IMG/VR virus record: IMGVR_UViG_3300028886_000036
Span: 64,001-128,000 of that record
Reading direction: 5' to 3' (one strand)
Length of the DNA: 64,000 nt
DNA from: a virus
Taxonomy: Duplodnaviria > Caudoviricetes
Position 1 is the stretch's first letter. Each line of letters begins with the position of its first letter. Shown here piece after piece: positions 17,631 through 19,954 of this stretch. A model generated the notes under the pieces. The model saw only the letters and a list, made by a program, of their open reading frames with translations. It was not told the DNA's origin and did not search any database. The translations under genes and the position numbers were made by a program.

Positions 17631-18131
17631 TTGATTAACTCCCATATAGGAGGGATGAAAGGAGAAATGCAATTACTTAAAAATAAAATACTTCTAGTAA
17701 AAGAATTAGCTCTTAGACTTTATCATAAAGCTAAGGGAGATAAAGTTGATGGGGAAGGTCTGCCGCCAATGTTAGACAAACCAAAGAAGTCTATTGAGTA
17801 TAGTAACCTGGTTAGAAGAATGCTGTTATTTATATTTACAGCACAATGGACTATGTTACTGCTTACTTCAGAAAGAATGTATTTAAAGCATGGAGATATT
17901 GGTGCTAATTGGACCAAATTACTTATAGCTATTGTTGGAATGATGTCTGTTATATTAGGTTTTTACTTTAGCGGTCAGTATTCAGATAGAAATAGCGAAG
18001 AATTTAAAAAACTCAAAGAGTATGATAATGATAGATTTGATGAATACAAAGAAGAAGTAAAAGAATTTGCAGAGGATACTAGTGTAACTCCTAAAGCAGT
18101 TTTAGATGAAGATAAAGAGGATGATGAATAA
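17631..18131 (+). CDS. Two-TM membrane protein, holin-like; true start probably a downstream ATG
   Basis: Two hydrophobic helices (MLLFIFTAQWTMLLL; LLIAIVGMMSVILGFYF) and an acidic C-terminal tail. Confidence 0.5.
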   Translation: MINSHIGGMKGEMQLLKNKILLVKELALRLYHKAKGDKVDGEGLPPMLDKPKKSIEYSNLVRRMLLFIFTAQWTMLLLTSERMYLKHGDIGANWTKLLIAIVGMMSVILGFYFSGQYSDRNSEEFKKLKEYDNDRFDEYKEEVKEFAEDTSVTPKAVLDEDKEDDE

Positions 18132-18925
18132 TGTTTAATAAATTACAGCAATGGTTATTGAAATTAATAGGTAGTAGATTTTCATCAGTATCTATTATAA
18201 TGGTCCTTGGGTTCTTATGTTACTATTTTAATATTTCTGCAGCTACCTTGTTTGAATGGTATCATGGGGATATTAGTAAACTTACTGTTGCACTTAGCGT
18301 TGGAGCTTTAGTTTCATTATATATTTCTGCGGATCTCATTATGAGTAGATTAAAACATATAGGTGATAAAGTAGATCGTCATGATGTGGTATTTAATTCA
18401 GCCGCATCTATTAATGAAGATAATAAAAAGAATTTAAAAGTGGTCCTTAAAAAGATTGACAGTATAATACAAGAACTTGGCAATAGTTCCAATGTAGTTA
18501 TTATACTGATACAGCAAAGCATCTATTTAGTTAGACCATCAATAGATATAGTTGCTAGCCAATATTTAGGTTTATCTGGAACTTTGAATGATCTTCAAAA
18601 ACAAGCCTTAAGAAAGCATATTGATAATGAGAAGATTAAATTTATTAGAAATATGTCTTACTTTGTTACTAGATTCTTTGATCCAGATTTAAGAACTACT
18701 ATGTTCAATCAAATGATTAAAACTAGTATTGACAAGGCCTTTGAAAGATGCTATGATGGTTTAGTAGAAATTTTAGATAATGGGGATACTGATTATGCTT
18801 CCAAATTATCTAAAGTTAGAGTAGTTGAAGATCAAATTGTACAAGACTTATTAAAAGGCGTTCTAAATATCGATTATGATATGATAGATCCTAAATTTAA
18901 AAGTAGGATGCCTGTTGACTTATAA
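18131..18925 (+). CDS. Membrane protein with two N-terminal TM segments
   Basis: Hydrophobic N-terminal helices; TAATG overlap with the upstream gene. Confidence 0.65.
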   Translation: MFNKLQQWLLKLIGSRFSSVSIIMVLGFLCYYFNISAATLFEWYHGDISKLTVALSVGALVSLYISADLIMSRLKHIGDKVDRHDVVFNSAASINEDNKKNLKVVLKKIDSIIQELGNSSNVVIILIQQSIYLVRPSIDIVASQYLGLSGTLNDLQKQALRKHIDNEKIKFIRNMSYFVTRFFDPDLRTTMFNQMIKTSIDKAFERCYDGLVEILDNGDTDYASKLSKVRVVEDQIVQDLLKGVLNIDYDMIDPKFKSRMPVDL

Positions 18926-18943
18926 GAAAGACGGTGATATAAT

Positions 18944-19234
18944 ATGCCAGGAGCTGCAAGATTAGGTGATAGTTGCACTGGTCATGGTTGATTTCCCAGT
19001 AGAGTTAACGTAGAAGGAAGTCACGATGTATATATAAATGGTATTCCAGCACATCGACAAGGAGATGGTTGGGCAGTCCATTGTTGTGGAAAATCCTGAC
19101 ACGGTAGCTCATTAGCTGCAGGTGCAGCTAGGGTATATGTTAATGGTAAACAATTGGGTTATATTGGTGCTCCAGTAGCCTGTGGGAGTTCAGTTTCTTC
19201 GGGTTCAAGCGATGTAATAGTTAATCCAGCTTAA
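18944..19234 (+). CDS. PAAR-repeat spike-tip protein (T4 gp5.4-like) with two in-frame TGA (putative selenocysteine) at codons 16 and 52
   Basis: MPGAARLGDSCTGHG*FPSRVNVEGSHDVYINGIPAHRQGDGWAVHCCGKS*HGSSLAAGAARVYVNGKQLGYIGAPVACGSSVSSGSSDVIVNPA; three PAAR-type repeats; SD GGTGA upstream; fills the gap between neighbouring genes; absent from the ORF track. Confidence 0.88.
19113..19130 (+). promoter_or_regulatory. Bacterial SECIS-like hairpin downstream of the second TGA
   Basis: TAGCTGC-AGGT-GCAGCTA perfect 7-bp stem starting 13 nt after TGA 19097-19099, with a GGU-containing loop. Confidence 0.65.
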
Positions 19235-19249
19235 GAAAGGAAGATTTAT

Positions 19250-19954
19250 ATGAGTTTTGTATTGCATGAGATATCAAACAATCTATTATTGAATGAAGAG
19301 GATATTCGTAATCTATTGCACAATCAAGTAATTGAAGATGCTAATAGAAATTTAGGTCTTAAAAAGTATAATGTTAATGCTACTGATATATGTGGATGTA
19401 TAAAGGCTCTATATTTTAAATTTAAGAATATAGAGCCATCTAATCCTCCATCCTATCCTTATTCTCCAATAGTACTTAATGTTGGTTCTGTTATACATAC
19501 TATAGTAGAAATGCTTTTAAAGCCAGAAGAAAAAGAAGTTTCTATTAGGTGTAGTCTACATGGTTTTAATTTGAATATGAGAGCAGATGCTATATATCAT
19601 AATAAGGTACTTCATGAATACAAAACTATTGATAATATAGATGAGAAAACTACTTGTAAAGAAGATCATTTAAAGCAAGCAGTAATTTATACGTATCTAT
19701 TAAATACCTATTGTAATAGATCTATTGAATGGATACAAATTATCTATATTGCTAGAGGTAAAGTTAATGTCAAGGTGTTTAACATACAAGTAACACCAGA
19801 ATTGATGTCTAAAGTAAAAGATAGATTAGACAGACAATTAAGTTATTTAAGAACTTGTTTAGATAGTAATACTGTACCTTCATTTGAAAATGAATTTTGT
19901 AAATGCAGTAAATTCTGTGAGTATTATGAGTTCTGTAAATCATTATCATCATAA
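19250..19954 (+). CDS. Cas4-like PD-(D/E)xK exonuclease
   Basis: ATDICGC..GSVIH..RADAI..EYKT..HLKQAVIY and C-terminal C-x-C-xxx-C-x5-C (probable Fe-S ligands). Confidence 0.75.
   Translation: MSFVLHEISNNLLLNEEDIRNLLHNQVIEDANRNLGLKKYNVNATDICGCIKALYFKFKNIEPSNPPSYPYSPIVLNVGSVIHTIVEMLLKPEEKEVSIRCSLHGFNLNMRADAIYHNKVLHEYKTIDNIDEKTTCKEDHLKQAVIYTYLLNTYCNRSIEWIQIIYIARGKVNVKVFNIQVTPELMSKVKDRLDRQLSYLRTCLDSNTVPSFENEFCKCSKFCEYYEFCKSLSS

Follow-up and report, generated by a model that had tools for sequence, protein, structure and literature searches.

The closest described counterpart of the element reported here is the SECIS of the E. coli gene fdhF, which lies inside the open reading frame directly after UGA140 and is bound by SelB. 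This element has a bulged U in its upper stem and a GGUC loop, and its G23 and U24 stand at a fixed distance from the UGA. The fdhF gene codes for a redox enzyme, and the selenoproteins known to us are redox enzymes of cells together with a few enzymes of animal viruses.

For bacterial SECIS elements in general, a consensus has been published, which comprises an apical loop of 3–9 nt on an upper stem of 4–16 bp (PMC13188914, Figure 2A). It furthermore includes a G within the first two positions of the loop, with G or U as its usual successor, a distance of 16–37 nt from the UGA to the apical loop and a minimum free energy of at most −7.5 kcal/mol (PMC13188914). The same 2026 review of the prokaryotic selenoproteome mentions neither phages nor viruses nor PAAR proteins (PMC13188914), and in a full-text literature search no phage virion selenoprotein and no phage SECIS element were found.

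The protein concerned is a PAAR spike-tip protein. Structures of PAAR proteins have been solved for VCA0105 of V. cholerae (4JIV), c1882 of E. coli (4JIW), gp5.4 of phage T4 (4KU0, 5IV5) and UpfC (9VYI). The phage protein is similar over its full length to 9VYI, 4JIV, 4JIW and 4KU0, with E-values from 5e-14 to 3e-5. The two closest solved proteins, UpfC and VCA0105, have glycine at position 16, threonine or aspartate and aspartate or lysine at positions 47 and 48, and threonine or serine at position 52. The invariant residues His14, His46, His53 and Cys80 of the phage protein align with the stretches which hold the metal ligands in the solved PAARs, and by this analogy we take them to be metal ligands as well. 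The four extra Cys/Sec positions are, judged from the alignment, an addition of the subfamily. We know of no solved or described PAAR member that contains selenocysteine (Sec).

In the phage gene, a stem-loop likewise lies within the reading frame (18944-19234), immediately 3′ of the in-frame UGA of codon 52. The fdhF sequence used for the comparison was verified in 5,419 E. coli genomes. Both elements have the UGA-C context, their first 8 nt (UGACACGG) are identical, and both have a GCAGGU apex closed by a G-C and a C-G pair, in which the loop GGU is exposed. They differ in the position of this GGU, which is found at +25 to +27 in the phage and one codon earlier, at +22 to +24, in fdhF. The phage element has an AGGU tetraloop on a perfect stem of 7–8 bp, whereas that of fdhF has a GGUC loop on an A-U pair and a bulged U, and it is located in a structural gene instead of a gene for a redox enzyme. 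The term fdhF-like, used in an earlier note on this DNA, is thus apt for the shared UGACACGG and GCAGGU but not for the loop, which is 3 nt further from the UGA, nor for the bulged U, which is absent; in these two points the hairpin departs from the fdhF type. It is proposed that the phage element works like that of fdhF and is no copy of it.

The PAAR gene and its in-frame UGA codons

The analyzed window is a stretch of 64,000 nt of phage DNA (positions 64,001 to 128,000 of the IMG/VR record IMGVR_UViG_3300028886_000036). The virus record has a length of 275,466 bp, a GC content of 32% and a completeness rated at 100%, and the sample names of the relatives of this phage suggest ruminant gut metagenomes. 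The PAAR gene (Table 1) lies in a 324-nt stretch which the table-11 ORF map leaves empty; a 264-codon gene precedes it, and a gene for a Cas4-like nuclease follows. Its ORF matches PF05488 (E 1e-13, 51.8 bits against a curated cut-off of 27) and phrog_281 (E 8e-29). A blastn search of the PAAR locus against cultured phages gave no match.

Table 1. Features of the PAAR locus, with positions in the window.
Feature	Position	Strand	Basis
Shine-Dalgarno-like GGTGAT, ATG 5 nt downstream	18933-18938	+	direct reading
PAAR spike-tip gene, 96 codons, two in-frame TGA codons, TAA stop	18944-19234	+	translation
First in-frame UGA, codon 16, putative Sec partnered with Cys48	18989-18991	+	alignment
Codons of Cys47 and Cys48 (TGT TGT), putative partners of Sec52 and Sec16	19082-19087	+	covariation
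Second in-frame UGA, codon 52, context UGA-C	19097-19099	+	direct reading, alignment
Spacer between UGA52 and hairpin, 13 nt, CACGGTAGCTCAT	19100-19112	+	direct reading
Hairpin 5′ arm, UAGCUGC	19113-19119	+	direct reading, folding
Apical tetraloop, AGGU	19120-19123	+	direct reading, folding
Hairpin 3′ arm, GCAGCUA	19124-19130	+	direct reading, folding

The upstream neighbor (18131-18925) has no match in Pfam or PHROG, and genes of 264-273 codons are also located directly upstream of PAAR in the relatives L017, L018, L022 and L113. The downstream neighbor (19250-19954) matches phrog_1706, a Cas4-like nuclease listed as ‘CRISPR/Cas system associated’ (E 2e-24). In L017, a gene of 234 codons, the same length as the Cas4-like gene of the window, directly follows PAAR. 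Public gene calls of UGA-bearing PAAR genes (P0002-P0005, P0013, P0054, P0121, P0122, P0125 and P0131) are found on short contigs only; they were made with code 4, and Trp is written at their TGA positions. On long contigs, the PAAR gene is absent from the annotations.

Table-11 ORFs account for 92% of the 275-kb genome. TGA is the terminator of 42 of the 281 long ORFs, and TGG encodes Trp 900 times in about 85,000 codons of the phage, in which no other credible in-frame TGA was found. Among the 38 coding gaps of the genome, the PAAR gene is the sole plausible TGA-interrupted gene. The recoding is therefore local, and code 4 or 25 is ruled out by the TGA terminators, the table-11 coverage and the TGG usage. 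Since independent assemblies of relatives from many samples carry identical TGAs and since purifying selection acts past each of them (dN/dS 0.06-0.28 at a dS of at least about 1, in each of the three segments delimited by the UGAs), the full-length PAAR protein is made. A pseudogene, sequencing errors or a phage-wide TGA sense codon (table 4 or 25) could be considered, as gene callers read TGA as Trp in the relatives, but all of these are very improbable: besides the shared TGAs, the selection downstream of them and the use of TGA as terminator, the homologues have Cys and not Trp or Gly at the TGA columns.

At both UGA positions, Cys is found in most homologues, in the contexts GHGCFPPR (16) and PSCHGSS (52). 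UGA16 is conserved in 6 distinct relatives, TGA16 being kept in L017-L020, L022-L024, L112 and L113. Both UGAs are thus conserved codons at Cys positions which are translated through. In the wider family, TGA at the Cys columns 16, 48, 52 and 80 goes back to at least six independent events. The lineages are the jumbo clade, L006 (60% GC, column 16), L091/L106 and L021/L115 (both column 48) and L117-L120 (column 16, in L117 additionally at the invariant Cys80). Cys codons make up about 26% of the codons which are one mutation away from TGA, and the chance that six or seven independent events all land on Cys is 3e-4 to 8e-5 if TGA is assumed to originate by random single-base changes.

The UGA48 genes L091 and L106 were added by a metagenome scan, which otherwise found homologues of at most 66% identity and no member of the close clade. 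DNA pattern scans for further TGA16 genes gave 7 chance matches and no PAAR gene on viral contigs, no match on viral contigs with a second pattern, and at least 120 chance matches on genome contigs, with no PAAR gene among the matches listed.

The PAAR subfamily shows two strictly covarying Cys pairs (window 18974-19183, codons 11, 16, 47, 48, 52 and 80; 262 homologues). Counted over 262 distinct sequences with kinship ignored, Cys16 covaries with Cys48 ([[217,0],[1,44]], Fisher 2e-49) and Cys47 with Cys52 ([[184,14],[0,64]], Fisher 1e-47). Every UGA at columns 16, 48, 47 or 52 retains its partner Cys (patterns UCCU, URCS, CCUC, CTUS, UTCT and UCCC), and codon 52 is never UGA where the 47-52 pair is missing. 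From the sequences, this is what a residue obliged to partner a cysteine would show, and selenocysteine is the known way of encoding such a residue by UGA. The 16-48 and 47-52 pairs probably form a cross-link each, or else a second metal site, at the apex of the spike. The sole exception to the 16-48 rule is L121:2001-2291 from a phage of 69% GC, in which a genuine TGG (Trp) occupies column 16 and Cys48 is kept; Trp is therefore tolerated at column 16.

Downstream of UGA16 (18989-19045), neither single folds nor a model scan revealed a hairpin in the clade that fits the SECIS model or is conserved, and in the jumbo clade nothing conserved after this codon emerged from consensus folds, whether of 81 nt or of the entire gene, so that the SECIS model accounts for part of the recoding only. 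One hairpin serving both UGAs was ruled out, since L113 retains UGA16 without the hairpin.

The hairpin downstream of UGA52

The hairpin (19113-19130) consists of a perfect 7-bp stem, or 8 bp when U19112.G19131 is counted. A perfect, GC-rich stem 13 nt after the UGA in an AT-rich genome had been noticed before, and the coordinates as well as the GC content (57% in the stem, 32% in the genome) bear this out. The hairpin is real: folding, which had been named as a check, returns it as the minimum-energy structure in RNAfold, with −16.6 kcal/mol for 49 nt and −10.4 kcal/mol for the hairpin alone. In a shuffle test it reaches a z of −1.8 to −2.0, with 7 of 200 shuffles as good, and the authentic fdhF SECIS of E. 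coli is weaker in the same test (z −0.9).

All four points of the published bacterial consensus agree with the earlier reading of this hairpin as a SECIS. The loop AGGU has 4 nt on a stem of 7–8 bp and carries G at its second position, followed by another G; the distance from UGA52 to the apical loop is 20 nt (the 13-nt spacer plus the 5′ arm), and the energy of −10.4 kcal/mol lies below the limit of −7.5 kcal/mol. A UGA on a Cys position with conserved protein downstream, which is a further criterion, is found in the PAAR gene as well. The consensus model of bSECISearch (PMC13188914) is permissive, as 0.8% of the TGA triplets of the genome pass it, and UGA16 fails to fit even this model. Among 10,306 genomic TGA triplets, a hairpin of this model follows in 0.8% at −7.5 kcal/mol or below and in 0.3% at −10 kcal/mol or below, so that such a structure is rare by chance. 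A scan of 18700-19500 against Rfam with E up to 10, which is a weak test for short bacterial SECIS elements, gave no SECIS family and only a chance match to Histone3.

The hairpin had also been expected to distinguish TGA-containing from Cys-containing homologues. It was found in every relative with TGA52, including a compensatory change from U-A to A-U, and only 2.9% of 69 homologues with Cys52 have a SECIS-model hairpin of −7.5 kcal/mol or below. The close clade consists of 8 distinct sequences, which form one clade in the tree (support 100/99). The window and L022-L024 have both UGA16 and UGA52 and a perfect 7-bp stem, and L017 and L018 have the same two UGAs and 7 bp with one U.G pair and the swap from U-A to A-U. 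L021 and L115, which have UGA48, carry a perfect 7-bp hairpin identical in stem and loop sequence to that of the window despite synonymous saturation. The remaining members have UGA16 only: L019 with a perfect 7-bp stem and A-U at the swapped pair, L020 and L112 with 5 bp and an A.C mismatch adjoining the loop, and L113 without a hairpin. These four have lost the 47-52 pair (Arg47, a residue other than Cys at 52); codon 52 of L019 encodes Ser, yet its hairpin is perfect. L020, L112 and L113 form a supported subclade, and L019 is placed beside L018 without clear support.

In these 8 sequences, with L019 as an exception, the stem thus appears to persist in lineages that have a UGA at most about 45 nt upstream of it and to decay with divergence in those whose sole UGA is at a distance of 121 nt; across the relatives, hairpin and nearby UGA tend to go together. 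The loop is AGGU in 7 of the 7 clade members which retain the stem, with the closing pairs opened in two of them, and CGGA in the hairpin-less L113. At columns 9/18, three sequences have a U-A pair, three have A-U and one has G-C. Among the 8 sequences, covariation is confined to this pair, whose score is reached in 5 of 500 shuffles.

In L021 and L115, UGA48 and the loop are 41-44 nt apart, which is outside the range of 16–37 nt. Both UGA48 genes have a 3-codon insertion, and in each (L021:274-340 and L115, codons 53-72) the 23 nt between UGA48 and the AGGU hairpin fold as a second hairpin of different sequence. This second hairpin may shorten the effective distance between UGA48 and the loop.

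The encoded peptide is L-A-A-G-A-A-R-V in the hairpin clade and L-A-A-G-S-x-x-V in the wider family, a departure to which the earlier note had already pointed. AGAAR is confined to the hairpin-bearing clade, and the other approximately 90 homologues have GSxxV. Such a clade-specific departure is a prediction of the idea that the RNA constrains the protein, and we infer from the alignment that an RNA requirement forced the AGAAR peptide. Given L-A-A-G-A-A-R, five of the seven pairs are automatic; a single sequence therefore proves little. The remaining two pairs, at wobble positions, form by chance with a probability of about 0.21 per lineage, and both are kept in four or five lineages, for which the chance is about 2e-3 to 5e-4 if the lineages are independent.

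A coupling of UGA with a hairpin carrying a G[G/U] loop recurs in the PAAR family. In the P2-like rumen phage L117 (L117:823-870), a 9-bp hairpin, GUUGCUACU-GGU-AGUAGCAAU, starts about 9 nt downstream of UGA80. L119 and L120, with 74% DNA identity to L117, have TGT at column 80 and lack the hairpin. Their peptide is the VATGSSN of L117, but the serines are encoded by UCA UCU in place of the AGU AGC from which the L117 hairpin is built. In L006 (L006:961-1010), the hairpin CCCUC-GGUC-GAGGG has its loop 17 nt from UGA16; in L091, GUUCGC-AGUUA-GCGAGC lies 22 nt after UGA48, and the WPP-type lineages have a hairpin in common whose GU occupies identical alignment columns. Of the TGAs at columns 16 and 48 in independent phage lineages of 28-60% GC (L006; L091, L106; L119, L120), several are followed by hairpins with GGUC, AGUUA or GUU loops at SECIS-like spacing.

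Decoding of the UGA codons

On these comparisons, it is fairly probable that the hairpin at 19113-19130 is a bacterial-type SECIS located within the coding sequence of the phage PAAR gene. A ribosome at UGA52 would then meet the AGGU apical stem 20 nt downstream, bound by host SelB carrying Sec-tRNA(Sec); Sec would be inserted at UGA52, and translation would continue. Both the binding of SelB and the identity of the inserted residue, Sec and neither Cys nor Trp, are what we infer. The protein would carry Sec16 and Sec52 beside their partners Cys48 and Cys47, adjoining His14, His46, His53 and Cys80, and Sec16-Cys48 and Cys47-Sec52 would form selenenylsulfide links or paired metal ligands near the His/Cys metal site at the apex of the spike. 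The phage has 8 tRNAs, none with a UCA anticodon, its best match to RF01852 (tRNA-Sec) is a tRNA-Leu gene below the cut-off, and a search for SelA, SelB and SelD in the phage found none. Since the phage lacks its own Sec machinery, that of the host must be borrowed.

The stem could instead be a by-product of the peptide, because Ala-Ala-Gly-Ala-Ala (GCN GCN GGU GCN GCN) is nearly self-complementary; the peptide would be kept for structural reasons, and the UGAs would be read, as Sec or otherwise, without the stem. The five pairs that follow from the peptide, the chance of about 21% for the others, the hairpin of L019 in the absence of UGA52 and the evident decoding of UGA16 without such a hairpin all speak for it. 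It is nevertheless unlikely, as it does not account for an AGAAR restricted to the UGA-bearing clade when some 90 other homologues do with GSxxV, nor for compensatory changes which keep third positions complementary at saturated dS, nor for a decay of the stem only where no UGA is near. L117 and L119 moreover show the same coupling of UGA and hairpin with an unchanged peptide.

Still less likely is a general stimulator of readthrough or pausing, with UGA52 read inefficiently by a near-cognate tRNA for Trp or Cys. About one copy of a PAAR spike tip is needed per virion, so that a low yield could suffice and might even set the low stoichiometry of PAAR. Downstream structures are known to raise the readthrough of stop codons, termination is weak in the UGA-C context, the homologue L121 carries a real Trp at column 16, and no Sec machinery is visible in the phage. 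Against these points stand at least six independent TGAs that all fall on Cys columns (about 3e-4 by chance) and a partner Cys retained in every UGA-bearing sequence. The G[G/U] loop motif at SECIS spacing in several lineages argues against mere readthrough as well, and very little full-length protein would come from a gene with two successive leaky stops. The reading as a SECIS is therefore preferred here.

Probable selenium at the tip of the spike

The PAAR protein is, judged from its sequence, probably a selenium-containing protein of the virus particle. The more detailed assumption of a true virion selenoprotein, with Sec16-Cys48 and Cys47-Sec52 as selenenylsulfide staples or Se/S metal ligands, made with host SelB and arisen independently in several unrelated phage lineages at columns 16, 48, 52 and 80, is given slightly less than an even chance. 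The lower redox potential of Se-S bonds would suit a reducing habitat, and such links would presumably withstand the strongly reducing rumen, whereas disulfides would not. New in this study are the gene with two UGAs, the paired-Cys rule and the decay of the hairpin after the loss of UGA.

If true, phages can recode UGA locally by means of the SelB pathway of their host, and their infectivity would depend on the selenium supply and the Sec machinery of that host. Sec would have a structural role and not a catalytic one, by cross-linking a membrane-piercing tip or binding metal there. Gene callers would systematically miss or mistranslate such genes, as seen here in the gap of the table-11 map and in the Trp residues of the databases. 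As it has only 96 residues and occurs in nature with Sec, with Cys or with neither at four positions, this protein would be a convenient system for asking why Sec replaces Cys.
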